Part shown: one piece after another, positions 6,404 through 64,000 of the stretch
Layout of the letters: the number at the start of each line of letters is the position of its first letter
How positions within the stretch are numbered: the stretch's first letter is position 1
DNA from: an uncultured Bacillales bacterium
Lineage (GTDB): Bacteria > Bacillota_I > Bacilli_A > RF39 > UBA660
Direction: 5' to 3'
DNA length: 64,000 bases
Assembly: GCA_946534345.1 (NCBI GenBank)
Contig: CAMNCL010000001.1
Location: 87,175-151,174 of the forward strand
Notes under the pieces: generated by a model
What the model was told of the DNA's origin: nothing
The model's database searches: none
The model's input: the letters and a program-made list of their open reading frames with translations, nothing else
Translations under genes and position numbers: made by a program

Positions 6404-7117
6404 ATGGCTACACCTCATATTGAGAGTAAAAAGGGAGATATTGCGAAAGTAGTTTTAATGCCAGGTGATCCCTTAAGAGCAAAATATATTGCGGAGAATT
6501 TTTTAGAAGATGCAAAACTTATTAATACAGTGCGTAATATGTATGGATATACTGGTAAATATAAAAATAGAAGAGTAACTGTATTTGCTAGTGGAATGGG
6601 CATTCCAAGTATTGGTATATATGCTTATGAATTATATAAGTTTTATGATGTTGAAAAAATAATTAGAATTGGTACTAGTGGTTCATTTAATGAAGATGTT
6701 AAATTACTAGATGTAGTATTATCAACAGGAGCTTATTGTAAGAGCTATTTTGATGAATTATTAGATGGAGTAGATGTTGATTTTATTCAGTCATCTGCTG
6801 AGTTAAATAGAGAAATAATGAATGCTGCTAAAAAGAATAATACTGATTTAAAAGTTGGTAAAACTATTACTAGTGATGTTTTTGATTTATATTGTGATGA
6901 TGAAAATAAATTCAGAAATACATTTCCAGATATGAGTTTTTTAGCTGTAGAAATGGAAGCATTTGGCTTGTTCTATGTAGCTAAAAAATTAGGTCGTGAA
7001 GCAACTGCTTTAATGACTGTAGTTGATTCATTATATGATAAGAGAAGTTTATCTAGTGAAGATAGAGAAAAATCTTTAAATGATATGATTGAATTAGCTT
7101 TAGAATCTATAATCTAA
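6404..7117 (+). CDS. deoD: Purine nucleoside phosphorylase, DeoD type
   Basis: 'MATPHIESKKGDIAKVVLMPGDPLRAKYIAENFLEDAKLIN' is nearly identical in pattern to the E. coli DeoD N-terminus. Confidence 0.9.
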   Translation: MATPHIESKKGDIAKVVLMPGDPLRAKYIAENFLEDAKLINTVRNMYGYTGKYKNRRVTVFASGMGIPSIGIYAYELYKFYDVEKIIRIGTSGSFNEDVKLLDVVLSTGAYCKSYFDELLDGVDVDFIQSSAELNREIMNAAKKNNTDLKVGKTITSDVFDLYCDDENKFRNTFPDMSFLAVEMEAFGLFYVAKKLGREATALMTVVDSLYDKRSLSSEDREKSLNDMIELALESII

Positions 7118-7152
7118 TAAAGAGGGGCAGATTATTAAACAGGAGGGAATTT

Positions 7153-8424
7153 ATGGATTATATTAGAAAAGATTTAGGATCTTTTAATTTACATATGATT
7201 AAAACAGAGAAGTTTAAAACAATTACTGTTAAAGTATTATTTCATACACCAATTATTAAAGAAGAAATTACTAAACGTAATGTTTTAGCAGACATTTTAC
7301 TTCAGTCTTCAAAGAAATATAAGACTAAAAGAGATTTGGTTATTGCGGCAGAAGACTTATATGCCGCAAGTATTAGTAATAGTAATAGAAGATTAGGTAA
7401 TTATATTTTAACTAGTTTTAACTTCCAAGTATTAATGGATAAATATACAGAAGAAGGTAATTTAGAAAAAGCTTTTTCTTTTTTTAGTGAGATATTATTA
7501 AATCCAGATATAAGTGATAATAAGTTTAAAAAAGAAAAATTAGATATTTCTAAGAATAATGCTTTAATGATACTTAATTCTATTAAGGAAAGTTCTTCTA
7601 GTTACAGTATGATTAAAATGTTAGAAGCTTATGATTCTAACAGTCCAGTATCATATAGATCTATTGGTTATTTAGAAGACTTAGATATGATTACTGAGAG
7701 TAGTTTATATGATGCATATCAAAAGATGATTAATAATGACTATGTAGATATCTTTGTAGTTGGTAATTTTGATAATAAAGAAATGCTTTCTTTGATTAAG
7801 AAATATTTTAAATTTAAAAGAATTAAAAAGAGAAAAGCAAGTTATTCTTTAAAAGAACATATTCCTCGTAAAAAGAGATTGTTTACTGGAGAAGAAATTA
7901 ATAATACTCAATCTAAACTCGCAATAGCTTGTCCAATGAATAAATTAACTGAATATGAAAAGAACTATCCTTTAGTATTAGCTAATTTAATATTTGGTGG
8001 GGGAGTAGAATCAAAACTATTTAAAAATGTTAGAGAAGAGAACTCTCTATGTTATACAATTAGATCTTCTATTAATAAATTAGATAATTTATTATTAATA
8101 GGTGCAGGTATAGATAGAGATAATTATGCAAAAACAGTTAATTTGATTACTAGAAATTTAAATGATTTAAAGAAGGGTAAATTTACTGATAGAGATATAG
8201 AAGTAGCTAAAGAGTTTTACTATACATCAATAGAAGAATTAGAAGAAGATGAATATCGTATTATTAATGAATTTTTAAATGAAGAATTATTAGGGTTACC
8301 TCCAATAGTTGAAAGATTAAAGAAGATGAATAAGGTAACTAAAAAAGAAATACTAAAGGTATATAAAAAGATTACTATGGATACAGTATTTTTATTGGAG
8401 GGGGTAAAGAATGAAGAAGATTAA
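7153..8424 (+). CDS. M16-family peptidase-like protein lacking the HxxEH motif (inactive partner subunit)
   Basis: Length and architecture fit the M16 family but no HxxEH. Overlaps the next M16 gene by 14 nt. Confidence 0.65.
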   Translation: MDYIRKDLGSFNLHMIKTEKFKTITVKVLFHTPIIKEEITKRNVLADILLQSSKKYKTKRDLVIAAEDLYAASISNSNRRLGNYILTSFNFQVLMDKYTEEGNLEKAFSFFSEILLNPDISDNKFKKEKLDISKNNALMILNSIKESSSSYSMIKMLEAYDSNSPVSYRSIGYLEDLDMITESSLYDAYQKMINNDYVDIFVVGNFDNKEMLSLIKKYFKFKRIKKRKASYSLKEHIPRKKRLFTGEEINNTQSKLAIACPMNKLTEYEKNYPLVLANLIFGGGVESKLFKNVREENSLCYTIRSSINKLDNLLLIGAGIDRDNYAKTVNLITRNLNDLKKGKFTDRDIEVAKEFYYTSIEELEEDEYRIINEFLNEELLGLPPIVERLKKMNKVTKKEILKVYKKITMDTVFLLEGVKNEED

Positions 8425-51882: not shown

Positions 51883-54183
51883 ATGAATAAAAAAGGTTTT
51901 ACTTTGACAGAATTATTAGTCACAATTGTAATACTAGGAATAATTACAGGATTAGCAATTCCAGTATTAAGAATGGTTGAAGGAACTCAAACTGAGAGGA
52001 AATACTCCTTGTATTTAGACAATGTTAAGTATGCTGCGAAAGTATATGTTGATTCATATTCAGTAGATCTCTTTGAAAGTGATACTGGATGTAATTATAT
52101 TACCTATAAGGATATGAGTAAGTATAATTTCTTGAAGGATATTGATATTCCAGAAACAAGTTGTAATACAGATTATACTGTTGTTAAAGTAGTTAAATAT
52201 TATGACCAGTATTATTATAGTCCATATATAGGATGTGGTTCTAAAATTAATAATAAAGTAACTCCTGATATCTTTAAACCATATAAAGTAGGAAAAATAG
52301 ATACTTGTGATGGATCTACTAATGCTATTGCTATAACAGCTACTCCTGATAAAAGCTCTAGTAATACTAATAAAGTAGTTTCTCCTTTTGTAAAATTAGT
52401 ATCAGAAACGGGAGTAAAGAAGTCTCCTTTATTAATTGAATATGGATATAGTAGGGGACAAAATATTGATGTAATTAATGGTTGGACTAAATTAACTTTT
52501 GATGTTCCAGCTAGAGATGTTCAAGAGAATAATATAAAGGCTGTTCGAACTCAAACGATAAATGCTCATAGTCCTGCATTAACTCCTAAAGATACTGGTG
52601 AGTTTTATTTGGTAATAAAAGTTACTTCACTTGTAGATTTACAAGGTAGACCTTGGAAAGAAATTGATGAAAAAGATAATAATAAACTAGATCATTATGT
52701 AATTATTGGACCATATAAAGTTGATAATTCAGCTCCTAAGATTAATTCAATTAATGTTAAATCAAGTAAAGATACACATAATGATAAAACTCCAATTCTA
52801 GAAATAGATGCAGTTGATGAAAAATATTCTTCTATAGGAGAATTAAAAATGTGTTATTCATATGACGATAAACAAGAATGTCCTATTCCAAAGAATGGAG
52901 AAGAATTAAAAAATATGAGTATGTATACTAAATATAATAGTACTCTAGCTTTAAATACAATTAATACAGATTATAATGGTTCTAATCATAAAATATTTGT
53001 AACTGTTGCAGATGCAGCTGGTAATACAACAACACAATCTGTGGATTATGCAGTTTCAAACACTCATACGTTGACATTTAATACTGAGGGAGGCAGTACT
53101 TGTGATCCAATTAAGCAAATAGAAAATAAACCATGGAATGCTAAAGTTATAGAAGATGCTGGTTATGCTAATGGTAATTTCTGTAATACAACAAAAGCTG
53201 GGTCTACATTCTTAGGCTGGTATACAGGTAAGGATGGTACAGGTACTAAAATTAATGCAACTGATTTAGCAACTAAAGATGTAACTGCTTATGCATTATG
53301 GAGCTCAACTAAACCATCTTGTTCAATTACAGCATCAGTAAAACCTAATGCAAATGGTTGGAATAAGACTAATGTAAAATTAACATTAAATAGAAATGGT
53401 CAAGGAATAACTAGTTATGGTTTAGCAAAAACTAAAAATTCTACAAACCAAACTACATCTGTAACAGTTACTGCTAATGGAACTACCACATATTATGGAT
53501 ATGTAGAAACAGCAACTGGTAGTTATACTTGTTCTTATACGGTTAAAATTGATAAAACAGCGCCTACATGCGGAAAATTCACAGGTGGATCTACAACATG
53601 GTCAAACGCTAAGTATAGAACGATAAAAGTTGCTTGTAAAGACAGTGGATCTAAATGCAAAAAAACTCAATTCTCAACTAATGTAAAAAATGAAGTAAAA
53701 ACAAAAAATGTTTCTATTACAATAAAAGACAAAGCAGGAAACACTAGAATTTGTAAAAGTACTCGTAATATTTATCTTGATAGGACTGCTCCAAGATATG
53801 TACCAAAGAGTAAGGGACAATTTATTGCTGATGGTCATAATCAGTGGTATAGTTATTGGGCAGATAGTTTATCTGGACTATCTACCGCAAACTCAGGAAA
53901 TTATTCTAAAATATATTATTGTTATGCAGATTGCAATAGTGGATGTAGTAGTAGTTGCTGTAAAGCTCCAAGACCAAATTTTGAACATCGTGGTACAGAT
54001 GGATATTATTTAAGAGAAGCAGATATTGCTGATAATTTAGATAATGGTAAAAATAAAGATAGAGTATTAATGCAAACACTTAGACGTTGTAATTACGGAG
54101 AATATGCTGTAAGAGCAGATTTCCATATATGTGACCGTGCTAATAATTGTAGTAATTTGTTCTTATATTATAGTTTTGATTAA
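51883..54183 (+). CDS. Giant prepilin-like protein (766 aa) with Flg_new/Listeria-Bacteroides-repeat-like segment
   Basis: 'MNKKG|FTLTELLVTIVILGIITGLAIP' class III signal with Glu at +5. 'HTLTFNTEGG...STFLGWYTGKDGTG...YALW' resembles a Flg_new repeat. Cys-rich C-terminus. Confidence 0.7.
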   Translation: MNKKGFTLTELLVTIVILGIITGLAIPVLRMVEGTQTERKYSLYLDNVKYAAKVYVDSYSVDLFESDTGCNYITYKDMSKYNFLKDIDIPETSCNTDYTVVKVVKYYDQYYYSPYIGCGSKINNKVTPDIFKPYKVGKIDTCDGSTNAIAITATPDKSSSNTNKVVSPFVKLVSETGVKKSPLLIEYGYSRGQNIDVINGWTKLTFDVPARDVQENNIKAVRTQTINAHSPALTPKDTGEFYLVIKVTSLVDLQGRPWKEIDEKDNNKLDHYVIIGPYKVDNSAPKINSINVKSSKDTHNDKTPILEIDAVDEKYSSIGELKMCYSYDDKQECPIPKNGEELKNMSMYTKYNSTLALNTINTDYNGSNHKIFVTVADAAGNTTTQSVDYAVSNTHTLTFNTEGGSTCDPIKQIENKPWNAKVIEDAGYANGNFCNTTKAGSTFLGWYTGKDGTGTKINATDLATKDVTAYALWSSTKPSCSITASVKPNANGWNKTNVKLTLNRNGQGITSYGLAKTKNSTNQTTSVTVTANGTTTYYGYVETATGSYTCSYTVKIDKTAPTCGKFTGGSTTWSNAKYRTIKVACKDSGSKCKKTQFSTNVKNEVKTKNVSITIKDKAGNTRICKSTRNIYLDRTAPRYVPKSKGQFIADGHNQWYSYWADSLSGLSTANSGNYSKIYYCYADCNSGCSSSCCKAPRPNFEHRGTDGYYLREADIADNLDNGKNKDRVLMQTLRRCNYGEYAVRADFHICDRANNCSNLFLYYSFD

Positions 54184-58204: not shown

Positions 58205-58747
58205 ATGAGAAATAATAGTATCTTTGATAAATATATCAATGAGAATAAAAATGATATTATTGTATATTTTATGGTACTTATAGTAGTAAGTATAGTTCTA
58301 TTTATAATTGGTAAAATAACAAATTTTTATTATATTTTATTGTTAGACTTTTTTTCTTTAAATTCTTTTTTATCTAAGATTATTGTAAGAAGAAATCTTA
58401 TACAAATTGAAAAGTATATATATGATAACAACTTAAATAAAAAAATAGGGGAAATAGAATATTGGAATGATAATAATTACTTTTTAACAACTAATTGTAT
58501 TATTTTACTTGAAAACAAAGTAATAGATATTATTCCATATGAGAAGATTAAAAGTATTTATTATAAAAGTAAAATGAATTTAGATTGGATTAGCCATATC
58601 GATAGAATGTTATATATTATTCTAGACAATGACAAGGAATATAGTTTTCTAGTTCATTCTACACTTCTTGTAAATGAAAATACAAAAGATATTGGATCAT
58701 ACTTAAAATCTAAAAATAAAAAGATTAAAATAATAGAGAATAACTAA
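58205..58747 (+). CDS. Hypothetical two-TM membrane protein
   Basis: ORF behind 'gatataat'. Confidence 0.45.
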   Translation: MRNNSIFDKYINENKNDIIVYFMVLIVVSIVLFIIGKITNFYYILLLDFFSLNSFLSKIIVRRNLIQIEKYIYDNNLNKKIGEIEYWNDNNYFLTTNCIILLENKVIDIIPYEKIKSIYYKSKMNLDWISHIDRMLYIILDNDKEYSFLVHSTLLVNENTKDIGSYLKSKNKKIKIIENN

Positions 58748-58841: not shown

Positions 58842-59312
58842 TTATAGTTGGAATCCTTTTGTATCACTTTCTTCTTTATTTTCAGAAAGCATTTCATCTA
58901 ATTCATTTTTTTTTGTGTCATCATAGATATCAGAAAAACTAATGTCTGGATTATTAGATTTAAGTGTAAATAATTTGTTATAAACATCTAATTCCATTGG
59001 TTCTTCATTATACGTTAATTCTATTTTAAAATAGTAATCTTCAGAATTTTGATACTCTTTCATTTTGGATTTTTCGTAAAACATAAGAGTTTTAGTTCCA
59101 AATTCTTGCATATCTCTTTCCGCTGTTTCTTTGATATCTATACTAATTACATCAACTCCTGGTTTATTCAATCTAGAAATTATTTCATCCAAAGTCATAT
59201 CTTCATATACTACCATTTGTTTCTCTATTCTATCGTCTAATACTTTTCTTCTTTCATTTGCTTTTTTTAGTTTTTCTTTTATTCTTTGTAATTCTTCATC
59301 GTAATTATTCAT
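58842..59312 (-). CDS. Small acidic hypothetical protein immediately downstream of the giant gene (candidate cognate or immunity partner)
   Basis: 156 aa. Starts 11 nt after the giant ORF stop on the same strand. RBS 'taggaggta'. Confidence 0.5.
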   Translation of the reverse strand: MNNYDEELQRIKEKLKKANERRKVLDDRIEKQMVVYEDMTLDEIISRLNKPGVDVISIDIKETAERDMQEFGTKTLMFYEKSKMKEYQNSEDYYFKIELTYNEEPMELDVYNKLFTLKSNNPDISFSDIYDDTKKNELDEMLSENKEESDTKGFQL

Positions 59313-59323
59313 TTATATACCTC

Positions 59324-62300
59324 CTAAACCCACTTAATTCTAAAATTATTTTTACTTAAGAAATCAGTTATACTTTCCACATAATCTGAGTATGAACTAA
59401 GCTCTTTTATTATTTTATCGCTTAATTCTGGATATTTGTTTAATAATTCTTCTATTGTTCTTTCTACATTATCATTACCATTTATGCTAATTTTTTCTGG
59501 AAGGAATTTATTTAGTCTATTCGTTAATCTCGCCTGACTTGTTTTAGTTAATTCATCTAGTTTTTCTGTTCTAAAACTATCCATTCTTTTTTGATACCAT
59601 TTTCCTAATTCACTATCTTCAGGAATAGACAATTCAATTTCATATGTCCTTTCTTTACAATTAGTATATGTAACTACTTCTCCAGCTCTTTCTTCTACCG
59701 CTTCCATTGTTGAGATAGGATTAACTGTAGCATCTTTGATTTTAGCAGTTCCATCGTATATTCTATCACTACCATTTTTGGCATAATTTGAAGAAAAATC
59801 AATATTCATTTCACCGGCATGAATTCTTTTACTCAAATCAATATCTATATCAACATAATTACCATCTGGACCCTTTTTTCTTGTTCCATCTTTATTATAT
59901 ACATTATCTATAATGTTTTTTGATTCTAAGCTTTCATATTCTTCTTTCACCTTTTTAGACATCGATTGATTTATTTGATTTTCTGTTAGTTCTTTTCCCT
60001 CTTTTTTTGCTTTATCGATTATTTCCTGTCGTAATTCTTGCAACCTACTTTCTGTTATTGTGTATTTTGTTTCTGGTGTTTCATCTAAGCTTAGTCTGGT
60101 TTTCTCTACATCTAATATAACATATTCACCTGTTTGCATCAACAAATTACCATCTTTAGTTAATGCTAGTTTTGCCATGGCATCTCCATCTCTTATACAT
60201 AAAGCAGCATCTTTTAATTTAACAAATTCATCTTCGCTATCTATTAGTTTTCTTAATGAATCTCCATCTATTAAATCGCCTTTTCCGCAGTCGTTCATTA
60301 CTTCTTCTAACTTATCAACACACTCATACCACATTTCTTTATCATCAAAACTACTTATTCCTGATGTTGATTTACTATGTGTCATTGCTAGTAGTGCAGA
60401 AATTTGTGGGTCTATGCCGTCTGGTACTGTTTGTTCTTCCAATATTATTACTGCAGAATTAAGAGGGTGATTCTTTCTAACTGTTAGCGCTAGATTAAAC
60501 TCATTTATTTTAAAAGTTGCACCTTCACCTAATGTTTCCTTTATAGTTTTTTGTAATCCTTCAGGATCTAATGTTAAGTATTTTTTGTTATATTTTTCCA
60601 AGAATTCTGTTGCTTGTTCTTCAGATAATCCTATTTTCTTTAGATCTTTTACAGATGGTTTAAAAACTCCACCTTTCATACCTAAATCATGACATTCTGC
60701 ACTATATTTAATCATTTCAATTTCTTCCTCGGAAAATCCTGCTTTTTGTGCTAACTCAACGGCATAATCTCTAACTAATTTTGTGTGTAGTTCCGCATGT
60801 TCTCTAAAGTTTTTAAAGAATGCATTATAATTAACTCTTGCGACTTCCATTCCTTCATCATATAAATTTGACACTTTAGTTTCATATGCCTTCATATCAA
60901 TTTTCTTAAACAAATCTTCATCACATATTTTTCTTAAATCGTCGGTAGATAAATTATCATTTTTATTTATGACTCTATAAACGATTTGATTAAATATTTG
61001 CTTTTGCATATCATCGCCATACTTTGATAAGTCATCAAGCGTTAATTTAGAACCATCAATTTTAATTAAGTCAAATGATGCTCTTACAGCAAAATCTGCT
61101 TTTTGAGTATCATTCATCATATTTACTATTTTTATTATATCTCCACTTTCTAGCTTTTGAATATTTATATATATATCTTCACCTGCTAGATTATTAATTA
61201 TTCTTTGTATTGATGAATCATTATATTCTGTTAAATACTTTGTAAATGATGCACCCTTTTTGCCAGAAAGGAGATTGTCTGCTAACATTTTTGCTTTCTT
61301 AGGACTTATGAATCCTGATGTAACATTTCTCATTCCATCAGAAACTGTATTTAATCCAAAATATCCAATGATTTCAAATGTTAATAATGCTACATCTCCA
61401 GCTGTTAATTCTCCGCTTTTGGCTTTTTCTACAACTTTCATTATCTGAGGACTTGCTTGGAATCCAGCACCTATAAAATTCATAATAACATTTCCTTTTG
61501 AAAACATCATGTTTAGATTCTTTTCAGATATGAAGTCATTTTTTACAATAGTTGCAACTTCAGACCAGCTAGAAACTTTGGCAGCGTCTATCATTTGTCC
61601 TATTCCAGCACCTGCTTTAGCATTAAATGCCCAGGACATTGCTTCTAAGCCACCTCGGCCGATTATTTTTAAGTTATCTAATAATCCTAAAGTTAAATCA
61701 GTTTCTCCATTATATATGGCATTTTGATAAGCGCTTTCAGCTGCCTCTCCGGATCCTTTTAAGAATCCTAAACCTGCAAATGTTCCAATTATCAATGGAG
61801 TTGCTGTTCCTCCGGTAAATACTTCTACTGCGGCAGCAGCAGCAATTACAATTGTAACTTCTGCAAATGTAGTTATTCCTTTGGCTATCTTACTGTCATA
61901 TTTTATTAATGACTTTTGATTTATATATTTCCCTAAATCAGTTTCTTCATAAAGCTTTTTATTTATTTTTTCAACATGGTCTACTGCTGCAAATTTTCTT
62001 AAGTCGTTTGCAGCATCATCAGCACCTAATAAGTCGAGTGCCCCTGCAATTGCGTATCCAAATAATCCATCTATTATTATTGCTTCTAATATATTTCCTA
62101 GTGCACTCAATATAGAAGTTCCTATTACAGAACATGTTGCTAATTGAGAAACTTTTACATTTATTCTTTCTCTAATAAATCCTGTGAAATGTTTTCCTAT
62201 ATGAGCACCAGTATTTTTAAATGCATCCCAAAGATGATTAGATTCATTTTCTGTAAGTGGTAAACTAGTCATTCTAGCTCCAGTTGCATCAATGTTTCCT

Positions 62301-62920
62301 GTAGTTATTACAGGTCTTGAAGATTGCATTGTTTTACCTGCTACCTTTGCACCAGTGGCACTAACACCACCACCTCTACCAGCAATACCTGTAGTTATTC
62401 CAGTTAAACCTCCAGACTTTGAAGATGATTTAGTGCTACTACTTGAAGGTGATGACCAACTACCACCACCACCGCCACCAGAACCACTAGTAGCAGAAAA
62501 ACTACTTCCTCCTGTATTTGCAGTACTTCCTGTGGTATGGTTTCCAGGAATGTTAGTATTACTATCTAATGAAGTATCTTTATTAATCTCTCCTGTTGTT
62601 TGATTTATAGTATCTGTCTTAGTAGTTTCGTTTGTTAAGTTTTCACTTGTTACTTCACTTGAACTTGTAGTAGTATTTTCTATATTTACATTTTCTTTAA
62701 CAACTTTTTGAGCTTCAGTTGTTGCGGCTTTTGCTCCTTCTCCAAAGATATCTCCTAAATTTAATGTTGTCATTTCTGAAGATTTGTTAATCTCTCCAGT
62801 AGATTGTTCTACGGATGATAAATTGATAGTAGATTTATCAATTGATGAACCACCGATAGAAGAGGCTTTGCTTCCTACTGGTCCGGTACTAATATTATGA
62901 TCTGTTATAAAATAACCCAT
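59324..62920 (-). CDS. Giant (1198-aa) signal-less multidomain protein: S/T/G-rich N-terminus, Gly-zipper hydrophobic module, HD-hydrolase-like domain
   Basis: The N-terminus 'MGYFITDHNISTGP' is not a signal peptide. 'SGSGGGGGGSWSSPSSSS' is low complexity. Hydrophobic 'AIIIDGLFGYAIAGALDLLGA' and 'VTIVIAAAAAVEVFTGGTATPLIIGTFAGLGFL'. '..ELHTKL..' and 'YSAECHDLGMKGG' give an H...HD pattern, then 'RKNHP...AMTHSKS'. Confidence 0.75.
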   Translation of the reverse strand: MGYFITDHNISTGPVGSKASSIGGSSIDKSTINLSSVEQSTGEINKSSEMTTLNLGDIFGEGAKAATTEAQKVVKENVNIENTTTSSSEVTSENLTNETTKTDTINQTTGEINKDTSLDSNTNIPGNHTTGSTANTGGSSFSATSGSGGGGGGSWSSPSSSSTKSSSKSGGLTGITTGIAGRGGGVSATGAKVAGKTMQSSRPVITTGNIDATGARMTSLPLTENESNHLWDAFKNTGAHIGKHFTGFIRERINVKVSQLATCSVIGTSILSALGNILEAIIIDGLFGYAIAGALDLLGADDAANDLRKFAAVDHVEKINKKLYEETDLGKYINQKSLIKYDSKIAKGITTFAEVTIVIAAAAAVEVFTGGTATPLIIGTFAGLGFLKGSGEAAESAYQNAIYNGETDLTLGLLDNLKIIGRGGLEAMSWAFNAKAGAGIGQMIDAAKVSSWSEVATIVKNDFISEKNLNMMFSKGNVIMNFIGAGFQASPQIMKVVEKAKSGELTAGDVALLTFEIIGYFGLNTVSDGMRNVTSGFISPKKAKMLADNLLSGKKGASFTKYLTEYNDSSIQRIINNLAGEDIYINIQKLESGDIIKIVNMMNDTQKADFAVRASFDLIKIDGSKLTLDDLSKYGDDMQKQIFNQIVYRVINKNDNLSTDDLRKICDEDLFKKIDMKAYETKVSNLYDEGMEVARVNYNAFFKNFREHAELHTKLVRDYAVELAQKAGFSEEEIEMIKYSAECHDLGMKGGVFKPSVKDLKKIGLSEEQATEFLEKYNKKYLTLDPEGLQKTIKETLGEGATFKINEFNLALTVRKNHPLNSAVIILEEQTVPDGIDPQISALLAMTHSKSTSGISSFDDKEMWYECVDKLEEVMNDCGKGDLIDGDSLRKLIDSEDEFVKLKDAALCIRDGDAMAKLALTKDGNLLMQTGEYVILDVEKTRLSLDETPETKYTITESRLQELRQEIIDKAKKEGKELTENQINQSMSKKVKEEYESLESKNIIDNVYNKDGTRKKGPDGNYVDIDIDLSKRIHAGEMNIDFSSNYAKNGSDRIYDGTAKIKDATVNPISTMEAVEERAGEVVTYTNCKERTYEIELSIPEDSELGKWYQKRMDSFRTEKLDELTKTSQARLTNRLNKFLPEKISINGNDNVERTIEELLNKYPELSDKIIKELSSYSDYVESITDFLSKNNFRIKWV

Positions 62921-63159
62921 AGAACATCTTCCTTTTGCTTATTTTTTATCCTAAATTAAGTATAGCATATGCCCAGAATTATATAATATAAAAAATGTTT
63001 ACTTTACGTTAAATAACTGTAGATAAAAATGATTTAATCAAAGTATTTATATGTATCATGTATTTTTGTACCATGTATATAACTATGTTACTTACTCAAA
63101 GTACATCGTTTCTATTTTTCGGAAAAACTATATATAGTATAAAGAATATGTCAAGTTTA

Positions 63160-63218: not shown

Positions 63219-63512
63219 ATGGGAGAAAGAATACATGTAGAAGAAAGTGCACTAAATGAATTAAAGAGTGCTTTAGAAACAGCAGGTAATGGATATAAAA
63301 GAGAACTTGCTAGATTAACTGCTTTAATTGAAGAAATCACAAGTGGTCATATACAGGGAGACCCTGCTGAGGATTTATTAGCTAAGTATAAAGCTAAGGA
63401 AGATGATTTCAAATCTCTTGCAAAAGCAATAGATGATGCTGAAGAATATGCAGGAGTTAAAGGAACAAGTTTTACAGATATGATTACAGAATTAAAACAA
63501 AGAGCAAAATAG
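63219..63512 (+). CDS. Small alpha-helical protein, WXG100-like / LXG-associated (DUF3130-type?)
   Basis: 97 aa, predicted helical hairpin, strong GGAGG RBS, first gene of a tight operon. Confidence 0.5.
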   Translation: MGERIHVEESALNELKSALETAGNGYKRELARLTALIEEITSGHIQGDPAEDLLAKYKAKEDDFKSLAKAIDDAEEYAGVKGTSFTDMITELKQRAK

Positions 63513-63527
63513 AAGGGAAGATGAATT

Positions 63528-63797
63528 ATGAATTTAACAATAATGCCAGGAGCAGCTACAGAAGATGTGGCTCAAATTGAAAGTCTTGTTCAAAATATTG
63601 ATGAATATATGACTGAACTAAATGATGTAATAAAAAAATTAATACCTAGTGGAATAGAAACAGATTGGTCTGAAGAATTATTAAATAAATGGACTGAATG
63701 CTACAATGGAAGTGTACAAAATGCCATGGAAGGTATGCTTTTAAGTGCTAAGAACTTAAAAATGGCTATTGATGCAGCATTAGAATATAATAAATAA
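63528..63797 (+). CDS. Small alpha-helical protein, second LXG-associated-like (DUF3958-type?)
   Basis: 89 aa, helical, contains W..W ('ETDWSEELLNKW'). 15-nt spacing from the upstream gene. Confidence 0.5.
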   Translation: MNLTIMPGAATEDVAQIESLVQNIDEYMTELNDVIKKLIPSGIETDWSEELLNKWTECYNGSVQNAMEGMLLSAKNLKMAIDAALEYNK

Positions 63798-63820
63798 TTA
63801 GAAGGTGAAACGTGAGTAAT

Positions 63821-64000
63821 ATGTTACCTGTTGGAAGCAAGGTAAAATTAAAAGATGGAAGAATTTTGGTAATAATTGGTTATTTACCAAATAAACCTAA
63901 TGATGAAAAACTATATGATTATATTTGCTGCAGAAATATATATGGTATTAGACACAAAAAAGAAGATTTAGTTTTAGATAGAGATTATTTTTATATAAAC
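63821..64000 (+). CDS. DUF4176-like small protein; 3' end beyond the window
   Basis: 'MLPVGSKVKLKDGRILVIIGYLP' fits the remembered DUF4176 pattern MLP.GS.V.LK.G....I. No stop before nt 64000. Confidence 0.5.
   Translation, partial: MLPVGSKVKLKDGRILVIIGYLPNKPNDEKLYDYICCRNIYGIRHKKEDLVLDRDYFYIN

Follow-up and report, generated by a model that had tools for sequence, protein, structure and literature searches.

Near one end of the 64-kb stretch of DNA analysed here (the window), a large minus-strand gene is followed by a small one encoding an acidic protein. Is this pair a secreted toxin with its antidote, as the preliminary description proposed, and by which route would such a toxin reach a target cell? 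The answer that we consider probable is that the pair is a T7SSb toxin-immunity module, whose toxin belongs to a polymorphic family without a recognisable LXG domain, in an uncultured, low-GC (~27%), Bacillota-like host. Both ORFs, of 1198 and 156 aa, exist as claimed, and the spacing from the stop codon of the first to the start of the second is exactly 11 nt. The features of the locus are as follows.

59324..62920, minus strand: putative toxin gene (ORF, 1198 aa), comprising leader, Gly/Ala-rich helical domain, helical linker and HD phosphohydrolase module
62240..62920, minus strand: Ser/Thr/Gly-rich low-complexity leader, residues 1-227, first ~60 aa conserved (composition, identity comparisons)
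61286..62239, minus strand: Gly/Ala-rich hydrophobic helical domain, residues 228-545, an unannotated family (profile search, AF2 model)
60836..61285, minus strand: helical linker, residues 546-695, with weak MgtE_N-like similarity (AF2 model, weak MgtE_N matches)
60176..60835, minus strand: HD metal-dependent phosphohydrolase domain, HD-CE-like, residues 696-915
59327..60175, minus strand: conserved alpha/beta C-terminal extension of the HD module, residues 916-1198 (AF2 model, alignment)
59320..59325, minus strand: AGGAGG Shine-Dalgarno of the candidate immunity gene (read from the sequence)
58842..59312, minus strand: candidate cognate immunity gene for the HD toxin, encoding an acidic, soluble protein of 156 aa (ORF)
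63127..63154, minus strand: promoter-like site TTGACA-16-TATAGT, ~200 nt 5' of the toxin start, the best match (11/12)
63219..64000, plus strand: start of a divergent operon of T7SS effector type, with ORFs for helical proteins of 97 and 89 aa and a DUF4176 gene that runs off the window from 63812

The AGGAGG motif of the 156-aa ORF overlaps the TAG stop codon of the large gene, an overlap by which, judged from the sequence, the two genes are translationally coupled. Promoter-like motifs in the region are in total not above chance, and the TTGACA-16-TATAGT site is only consistent with this gene having its own promoter. The large gene occurs once in the window, where it forms a two-gene cassette with the 156-aa ORF, and a core T7SS locus is not adjacent. 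Full-length homologues of its product (P0002 and P0003) show 60% identity over 100% of the length. The 156-aa protein is indeed acidic (pI 4.58; 38 D+E against 25 K+R).

A profile of the Gly/Ala-rich domain retrieved 266 representatives (E<=1e-3) among 1.84 billion proteins, and the domain is N-proximal in all family representatives. At the other end the proteins diverge: the C-terminal tips of 113 N-domain representatives fall into 36 similarity groups, and the C-termini include ADPrib_exo_Tox, EndoU, TNT, DUF3626 and HD. P0007 has a transglutaminase-like end, the family protein at locus L003 an ADP-ribosyltransferase end, and P0005, which is reported from the same assembly as the window, a Ser-rich tail. 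One N-terminal module joined to unrelated C-termini is the hallmark of polymorphic toxins for which a search had been proposed, and a second criterion for such toxins, a small downstream gene that co-varies with the toxin domain, is seen as well. Members are found in tandem arrays of large-gene/small-gene pairs, or have a second member downstream; all members found are metagenomic and unannotated. The suggestion that the protein may be new holds for its N-terminal architecture and HD payload, but not for its general kind, because type VIIb polymorphic toxins are well known.

Orthologues of the 156-aa ORF, with 55-56% identity, lie directly 3' of HD toxins at loci L001 and L002, and more distant counterparts follow the HD toxins at L012 and L013 (BLASTP 4e-8 between those two); similarity of the 156-aa ORF to this distant pair is weak (BLASTP E 0.048; hhalign probability 42%, P 2.7e-4). 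Family members with other C-termini are followed by different genes. For example, the ADP-ribosyltransferase member at L003 precedes a DUF4176 gene and then an ADP-ribosylglycohydrolase gene, and the TNT member at L012 precedes a different gene of 119 aa. The 156-aa ORF is, as predicted, co-conserved with the HD module, and we infer that it encodes the immunity protein of the HD toxin.

The HD motif noted in the preliminary description is real and conserved: H708, H712, H744-D745, H818, H848 and D911/D913, which include the metal-binding residues, are invariant in an alignment of 32 homologues, and the toxin module has the HD fold. The window protein scores 16.2 bits against the HD-CE Pfam model, below the 27-bit cut-off, but a 32%-identical homologue, P0008, exceeds the threshold at 28.6 bits, and HD membership of the window protein therefore follows by transitive homology. 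The best structural matches of the HD region are the non-catalytic C-domains of PPX/GppA. The closest known enzymes are those of the HD superfamily (Pfam HD PF01966, HD-CE PF24391), with cyclic-nucleotide phosphodiesterases, HD-GYP, PgpH, YqeK and the Cas3 HD nuclease among its members. The C-terminal extension is modelled at pLDDT >90 and is kept in 60 C-terminal homologues; it contains the invariant residues H1034, G1036, E1037, N1039 and Y1085 (position = 560 + alignment number) and, in the homologues, a conserved terminal strand IKV-x-F/W.

Of the two proposed routes, contact-dependent (CDI) delivery found no support, whereas type VII secretion was supported by the gene context of the relatives. 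An EssC ATPase (TIGR03928, 947 bits against a 778-bit cut-off) is encoded directly upstream of homologues in five loci (L001, L002, L003, L012 and L013/L014). These loci contain, in addition, DUF4176 genes and genes for an EsaB/YukD-like protein, for small helical proteins and for a double WXG100 protein, which scores above cut-off on TIGR03930 (46.1 bits). There are 1-3 DUF4176 genes in every homologous locus that reaches past the toxin gene, and they flank P0006 at L005. On two short contigs 100% identical to P0005, this gene is accompanied by the same set of partners (a 106-aa gene, three DUF4176 genes and a 217-aa WXG-like gene); both contigs end before EssC could be reached. In the window, DUF4176 genes begin 0.9 kb from the toxin start, in the divergent operon, which on L007 continues with three DUF4176 genes, genes for proteins of 151 and 419 aa (the latter hydrophobic in its C-terminal half) and a gene for a small membrane protein. 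EssC was not seen within the 64 kb, so the T7SS link of this copy rests on the synteny of its relatives and on the paralogue locus.

Conserved small proteins of ~77, 187 and 104 aa accompany family members at L001, L002, L003 and L005, and gave no match to Lap, DUF3130 or DUF3958 models; directly upstream of the window toxin there are no genes for such small helical proteins. LXG (Pfam PF04740 or the NCBIfam LXG effector models) was sought in ~70 family members and detected in none. The window protein gave no match up to E<=1, 55 family representatives gave none at E<=1e-3, and 10 members whose N-termini are long and helical gave none at E<=0.05; P0036, P0009 and P0005 were likewise negative with NCBIfam. 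The targeting mechanism is thus conjectural, since neither LXG nor Lap1 or Lap2 is detectable in the toxin or its small partners.

EsaA, EssA and EssB were not recognisable in any of the T7SS loci examined, which raises the question of whether the large protein itself stands in for one of them, either as a membrane-associated resident of the producer cell or as an accessory to its T7SS, bearing an intracellular HD enzyme for signalling or housekeeping. The P0005/P0006 type, which has no recognisable toxin domain and is followed by a WXG-like gene in place of an obvious immunity gene, would also fit such a role. Against it, other members carry established toxin domains with matching antidotes (ADP-ribosyltransferase with ADP-ribosylglycohydrolase; TNT; EndoU), replacement of the C-terminus is extreme, members occur in tandem large/small pairs or with a second member downstream, and the window copy is a cassette away from the core locus. 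No homology to a housekeeping protein was found, and we regard a resident role as unlikely.

The constant part of the putative toxin is tripartite, consisting of leader, Gly-rich domain and helical linker. No hydrophobic segment was seen in hydrophobicity windows at the N-terminus, and the toxin thus lacks a Sec-type signal, as had been stated. The low-complexity leader with its G6 run is also as described, although it extends over ~227 aa rather than 170 (residues 1-230 contain 17% Ser, 16% Thr and 14% Gly). Most family members begin with a short, disordered, Ser/Thr/Asn-rich leader. The window leader is 72% identical to that of the paralogue P0005 (85% across the first 60 aa), but only 33% identical to that of the HD orthologue P0002. 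Leader identity tracks the host, whereas identity of the Gly-rich domain and HD module tracks toxin type. Compared with shuffles, the leaders of the family are enriched in short acidic-hydrophobic motifs, although the patterns were picked post hoc. The leader may be a lineage-specific region for T7SS recognition or chaperone binding.

For the Gly/Ala-rich domain (~300 aa), no match was found in Pfam, NCBIfam, PHROGs, PDB or BFVD, and no structural relative of its AF2 model was detected. The model is all-helical and of moderate confidence (pLDDT 71, pTM 0.61). All of the hydrophobic strings quoted earlier are present in the toxin, with the strongest windows at ~262-300 and 350-385 and a weaker one near 514. 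"Glycine zipper" is a loose term for this block, which contains only 3 GxxxG motifs against 25 small-xxx-small motifs in 291 aa. By analogy, the domain is a candidate membrane-insertion or translocation module. A profile of the linker matches 15 family representatives out of 150, and the HD module is present in 3 of these 15.

The preliminary description likened the Gly-rich block to membrane-inserting toxins. Like the T7SSb substrates TelE, TspA and EsxX, which have membrane-inserting hydrophobic helices rich in small residues, the domain itself might form pores or depolarise membranes, with the HD region as an accessory. In those proteins, toxicity resides in the zipper, at the C-terminus, and a membrane protein confers immunity. 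Here, by contrast, the hydrophobic domain is N-proximal and constant, standing before at least 36 C-termini of which several are cytoplasm-acting enzymes, and the partner gene, for a soluble, acidic protein rather than a membrane immunity protein, changes with the C-terminus and not with the Gly-rich domain. It is quite improbable that the domain is the toxic part; it appears instead to be a conserved delivery module.

In AB-type toxins and in CpnT of Mycobacterium tuberculosis, a helical membrane-inserting module, N-terminal or central, carries a C-terminal enzyme (TNT, in CpnT) across a membrane. One member of the present family also carries TNT. The analogy is functional only, and no sequence or structural similarity was detected between the Gly-rich domain and the translocation domains of these toxins.

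Two further readings concern phages. Weak HD-CE and Cas3-HD similarities could point to an intracellular anti-phage effector with an HD nuclease of either type, but PADLOC matches are insignificant (E 0.004-0.04), T7SS context was present at every locus examined, and the N-terminal modules are common to toxins of the secreted type; we consider such a role very improbable. A phage tape-measure or tail protein with an enzymatic domain, which the size, the Gly-rich hydrophobic helices, the missing signal peptide and a few tape-measure proteins among non-significant Foldseek matches might call to mind, is effectively refuted and has a negligible probability, in agreement with the original assessment: there is no PHROG match, no Pfam tape-measure match, no BFVD match at E<0.1 and no relative in 2.9 million viral contigs, and the neighbours are housekeeping and T7SS-type genes, with no phage genes nearby.

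For the toxin-immunity module that we favour, module anatomy and gene context were observed directly, and from these we infer each functional step. The leader, whose sequence follows host lineage and not toxin type, would be recognised by the small helical targeting proteins of the lineage together with DUF4176 chaperones and be passed to EssC. DUF4176 proteins chaperone those regions of cytoplasm-acting T7SSb toxins that are hydrophobic or disordered and that have been proposed as translocation domains (PMC12478183), and here they may keep the Gly/Ala-rich domain soluble in the producer. After export, this domain, conserved before many unrelated cytoplasm-acting enzymes, would insert in the membrane of a neighbour and carry the C-terminus across, by analogy with the model for the middle domain of LXG toxins (PMC12478183). 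The C-terminal 500-640 aa, which have the fold and motifs of an HD phosphohydrolase/phosphodiesterase with an intact metal-binding site, would then hydrolyse a nucleotide or nucleic-acid substrate and thereby damage the target. The translationally coupled, cytoplasmic 156-aa protein would bind the HD module and neutralise it in the producer and its kin, as its position and co-variation suggest.

The nearest known systems are the LXG toxins, such as TelA/TelB of Streptococcus intermedius with the small helical targeting factors Lap1 (DUF3130) and Lap2 (DUF3958), encoded upstream, and the DUF4176 chaperones LtcA/LtcB. Like the relatives of the window toxin, they are encoded next to EssC, WXG100 and DUF4176 genes. 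Their cognate immunity gene lies immediately downstream, and a hydrophobic or amphipathic stretch separates the targeting part from a toxin domain that acts in the cytoplasm (PMC12478183). Unlike them, the present family has no detected LXG domain, its small partners match no Lap family, and in place of a short, variable, disordered segment its middle region forms a conserved domain, which is predicted to fold.

A stronger formulation is that the Gly/Ala-rich domain is an autonomous, portable module that translocates at least 36 enzyme payloads into the target cytoplasm, and that the disordered leader is a new, LXG-independent export signal read by a reduced T7SS that lacks EsaA, EssA and EssB and consists only of EssC, a double WXG100 protein and an EsaB-like protein. 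We put this forward tentatively, as possible but rather doubtful.

How cytoplasm-acting type VIIb toxins cross the target membrane is a question raised explicitly in PMC12478183. The Gly/Ala-rich domain may be a concrete candidate for the missing translocation device, because a conserved, membrane-like domain that is predicted to fold always lies between the leader and interchangeable payloads. The family would also indicate that a recognisable LXG domain is not indispensable to T7SSb toxins, and that in uncultured low-GC bacteria some T7SS loci show no more than part of the set of six components described as universal. The known T7SS payloads would come to include an HD phosphohydrolase, and the N-domain profile built here could serve to annotate further members of the family.

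The gene pair is best explained as a polymorphic toxin of type VIIb secretion (T7SSb) together with its immunity protein. The window sequence agrees with the preliminary description of two ORFs 11 nt apart, of a G6 run within the larger product (1198 aa, hereafter the toxin) and of an acidic smaller one (156 aa, pI 4.58), and every peptide quoted there was found in the toxin. The stop codon of the 1198-aa ORF is overlapped by an AGGAGG ribosome-binding site. The features of this region are:

59324-62920, minus strand: 1198-aa ORF, the toxin
58842-59312, minus strand: 156-aa ORF, candidate immunity gene
58205-58747, plus strand: small membrane protein of 180 aa
57807-58031, plus strand: 74-aa membrane protein with two hydrophobic helices and weak Saf_2TM similarity
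63219-64000, plus strand, continued on matching contig L007 (353-4762): divergent operon, adjoining the toxin gene and transcribed in the opposite direction

The toxin consists of a Ser/Thr/Gly leader, a Gly/Ala-rich domain, a helical linker and an HD module. In residues 1-230 Ser accounts for 17%, Thr for 16% and Gly for 14%, and the N-terminus has no hydrophobic segment. The low-complexity leader is real, but longer than the roughly 170 residues first estimated (~227 aa as measured). Hydrophobic windows are strongest at ~262-300 and 350-385 and weaker near 514. The name “glycine zipper” applies to this part only loosely, as a stretch of 291 aa has 25 small-xxx-small motifs and 3 GxxxG motifs. 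The stop codons of 33 long ORFs in the window are TAA (19), TAG (13) and TGA (1); an alternative genetic code, considered because of the scarcity of TGA, was rejected since translation with table 11 gives long, unbroken ORFs. The 74-aa and 180-aa membrane proteins, which lie between RNase J and the 156-aa gene, were assigned to no family and could be orphan immunity genes. Another ORF of the window (51883-54183, plus strand) encodes a protein of 766 aa that starts like a type IV pilin (MNKKGFTLTELLVTIVILGIITG...) and continues into a very large, Cys-rich C-terminal region, an unusual length for a pilin or pseudopilin.

The sole Pfam match of the toxin is HD-CE (PF24391, residues 703-844), which at 16.2 bits lies below the 27-bit cut-off; the first 560 residues match no Pfam family. 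NCBIfam gave nothing useful for the toxin, and the 156-aa ORF belongs to no family in either collection. The toxin has an HD fold, with structural matches of the module to the C-domains of PPX/GppA (values of 8-11), cyclic-nucleotide phosphodiesterases (7-8), HD-GYP, PgpH and YqeK (about 7) and Cas3 HD (5.2). Its HD motifs are present too: R706, H708, H712, H744-D745, H818, H848, R910, D911 and D913 are invariant in all 32 homologues, and the site therefore looks catalytically competent. A literature search found nothing relevant on Pfam HD-CE and no description of an HD-domain T7SS toxin.

A word-index search with the whole protein returned 7 homologues, a short list because the low-complexity leader had saturated the candidate list. 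An extremely rare family, as this number might imply, was rejected when C-terminal-only and exhaustive profile searches found many more members. P0002 and P0003 are homologous to the toxin over its full length (60% identity), while the similarity of P0004-P0007 is limited to the first ~545 residues. P0004, P0005 and P0006 (800-854 aa) end in a Ser-rich acidic tail, and P0007 (1271 aa) has a transglutaminase-like C-terminal domain. P0005 is most likely a paralogue from the window's own assembly, because it shares its sources with the window protein. The C-terminal 638 aa alone retrieved 60 further proteins at 30-38% identity, and the Gly/Ala-rich domain was present behind varied N-termini in all eight of these that were inspected.

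Among 1.84 billion representative proteins, a profile of the Gly/Ala-rich domain (residues 228-560) matched 266 at E<=1e-3 and, of these, 208 at E<=1e-10; a word-index search with an alignment of this domain retrieved none, which in view of the 266 is uninformative. With few exceptions among the 150 matches listed, the domain starts no more than ~300 residues from the N-terminus. What follows it is highly variable. Pfam recognized ADP-ribosyltransferase (5), EndoU nuclease (2), DUF3626 (2) and TNT NAD-glycohydrolase (1) domains among 55 family representatives, and an LXG domain, the usual T7SSb targeting domain, in none of them. Clustered by similarity, the C-terminal tips of 113 representatives form 36 groups, of which the HD group (n=12) is the second largest, so that the joining of one N-terminal module to different C-termini, named at the outset as the mark of a polymorphic toxin, is found here. 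Clustering was restricted to the tips, as single linkage on longer C-termini joined 100 sequences through the shared linker, an artefact. Nearly all of the cluster members inspected come from metagenome assemblies. The domain itself was modelled as an all-helical bundle (pLDDT 71, pTM 0.61) and has no match among PDB sequence profiles. A conserved L-x-G at residues 297-299 raised the possibility of a divergent LXG domain; it had neither profile nor structural support and was treated as coincidence.

T7SS genes accompany family members in related organisms, although no EssC is encoded within the 64-kb window. Gene orders in these loci are:

L001 and L002 (loci of the two full-length homologues): EssC, 88-aa EsaB/YukD-like protein, 78-, 186- and 104-aa proteins, 220-aa protein, toxin, homologue of the 156-aa ORF, three DUF4176 genes, start of a second family member
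L003: EssC, YukD-like protein, 224-, 75-, 187- and 102-aa proteins, 793-aa family member, DUF4176 gene, ADP-ribosylglycohydrolase gene
L012 (array after EssC): 861-aa protein with a weak TNT match, 119-aa gene, HD-CE protein P0008 (28.6 bits, above threshold), 127-aa gene, two further large-gene/small-gene pairs
L013 and L014: 81-aa EsaB-like protein, EssC, 201-aa double WXG100 protein, 124-aa protein, DUF4176, HD toxin P0037, 126-aa gene

The EssC of L001 and L002 scores 947.5 bits against TIGR03928 (cut-off 778.4), and the 201-aa protein of L013 and L014 matches TIGR03930 above cut-off (46.1 bits) in two stretches. The latter locus is compact (L013 3718-13716) and directly flanked by housekeeping genes. 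The 793-aa protein of L003 carries a C-terminal ADPrib_exo_Tox domain (E 3e-13), which with the downstream ADP-ribosylglycohydrolase (E 2e-33) makes a classical toxin-antidote pairing of predicted activities. In L012 a Zeta-toxin family gene (6883-8073, minus strand) lies between two toxin-immunity pairs of the array.

[quoted passage not shown] In the T7SS loci of L013, L001, L003 and L012 no EsaA, EssA or EssB was recognizable, and the components seen were EssC, the EsaB/YukD-like protein and a double WXG100 protein of 200-220 aa; the genes not seen may be located in other parts of those genomes. Sample labels (WILK20, SHIW14, AUXO01 and others) suggest that L001, L007, L009, L015 and L016, and with them the window's organism, derive from ruminant gut metagenomes.

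P0005 and P0006 represent a separate type. Three DUF4176 genes immediately precede P0006 in L005, and two short metagenome contigs (L015, L016), 100% identical to P0005, carry the same set: a 106-aa gene, three DUF4176 genes, P0005 and a 217-aa WXG-like gene. Proteins of this type (L005 2688-5093; L015/L016) share the leader and Gly-rich domain of the toxin, continue with a ~250-aa region of unassigned role and a long Ser-rich acidic tail, and occupy a core-locus position after the DUF4176 genes. The next gene is double-WXG-like and not an obvious immunity gene. They may be a conserved secreted component and not a toxin.

The small ORF goes with the HD module. Directly 3' of the HD toxins in L001 and L002 lie orthologues of its 156-aa product (55-56% identity), so the expected co-conservation holds. 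The 127-aa and 126-aa proteins after P0008 and P0037 are homologues of one another (BLASTP 4e-8), and hhalign places them in collinear alignment with the window type across 101 columns (P 2.7e-4, probability 42%); pairwise BLASTP of the 156-aa ORF against the 127-aa protein was marginal (E 0.048). Genes after family members with other C-termini differ from the 156-aa type. The partner gene co-varies with the HD module.

The toxin is itself a mosaic, as identities by segment indicate:

Leader, residues 1-227: 72% to P0005 (85% over the first 60 aa), 33% to P0002
Gly-rich domain, residues 255-545: 36% to P0005, 73% to P0002
C-terminus, residues 561-1198: 18% to P0005, 67.5% to P0002

Thus the leader tracks the host lineage and the remainder the toxin type, as expected if the leader were matched to the secretion partners of the host and the rest exchanged by recombination. 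A hydrophobic-Asp/Asn-hydrophobic motif (TTLNLGDIFGE in the window copy) occurs in 73 of 97 short-leader members against 28.5 expected from shuffles; since the patterns were picked post hoc, this enrichment is only suggestive. Some family members have long helical N-termini in place of the short leader, and Pfam LXG was not recognized in these. A trio of small proteins (~77, 187 and 104 aa; L001 7966-9086, L003 6365-7484, L005 377-1507) is conserved beside short-leader members, and the 187-aa protein has a Y-W-x-D motif. The member in L013 has a long helical N-terminus and a single 124-aa partner, which suggests that an LXG-like targeting bundle might be provided in trans by the trio; no sequence similarity backs this idea. 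A “split LXG”, with the 186-aa partner corresponding to the long helical N-terminus of P0036 or P0133, was not supported, as BLASTP detected no similarity between them.

The divergent operon opens with genes for two small helical proteins, of 97 aa and of 89 aa, and the second of these has a W-x-E motif. On matching contigs three DUF4176 genes (131, 88 and 68 aa) come next, followed by a 151-aa protein, by a 419-aa protein that is helical in its N-terminal half and strongly hydrophobic in its C-terminal half, and lastly by a small membrane protein (123 aa in the gene calls, 140 aa in an ORF scan). Apart from DUF4176, no Pfam families were found. The operon looks like a second T7SS effector module, perhaps for a toxin that targets membranes and an immunity protein located in the membrane.

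A study of 2025 established DUF4176 proteins as toxin-specific chaperones; its authors propose that the chaperoned toxin region mediates translocation across a membrane and, until the toxin is exported, is shielded from the membrane of the producer itself (PMC12478183). We suggest that the leader would target the toxin for export, that DUF4176 proteins would chaperone the hydrophobic Gly-rich domain, and that this domain would carry the toxin across the membrane. HD phosphohydrolase activity would make the C-terminus toxic, and the 156-aa protein would neutralize it. Glycine-zipper pore toxins such as TelE have been described (PMC10765036), and the hydrophobic domain might likewise form a pore; against this, the domain is constant in the family and the partner is soluble and payload-specific. 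A resident accessory protein of the producer is difficult to reconcile with a family that contains established toxin-antidote pairs and shows extreme C-terminal turnover. A role as a defence effector is argued against by the absence of any defence context, PADLOC having returned Cas3-HD similarities alone, all insignificant. A tape-measure or phage origin was rejected, as phage homology and context are both absent (no PHROGs match for the toxin; no Foldseek match of the Gly-rich domain to viral structures at E < 0.1).

The toxin pair would work in the manner of LXG toxin systems, but the defining LXG domain is not detectable, and the toxin is therefore best described as a member of a non-LXG family of T7SSb polymorphic toxins. 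The hallmark of this family is a conserved, unannotated Gly/Ala-rich helical domain, which in the window member bears an HD payload. The family offers a concrete candidate for the missing step by which T7SSb toxins enter target cells, and gives a hint of targeting without LXG and of T7SS loci that have fewer components.
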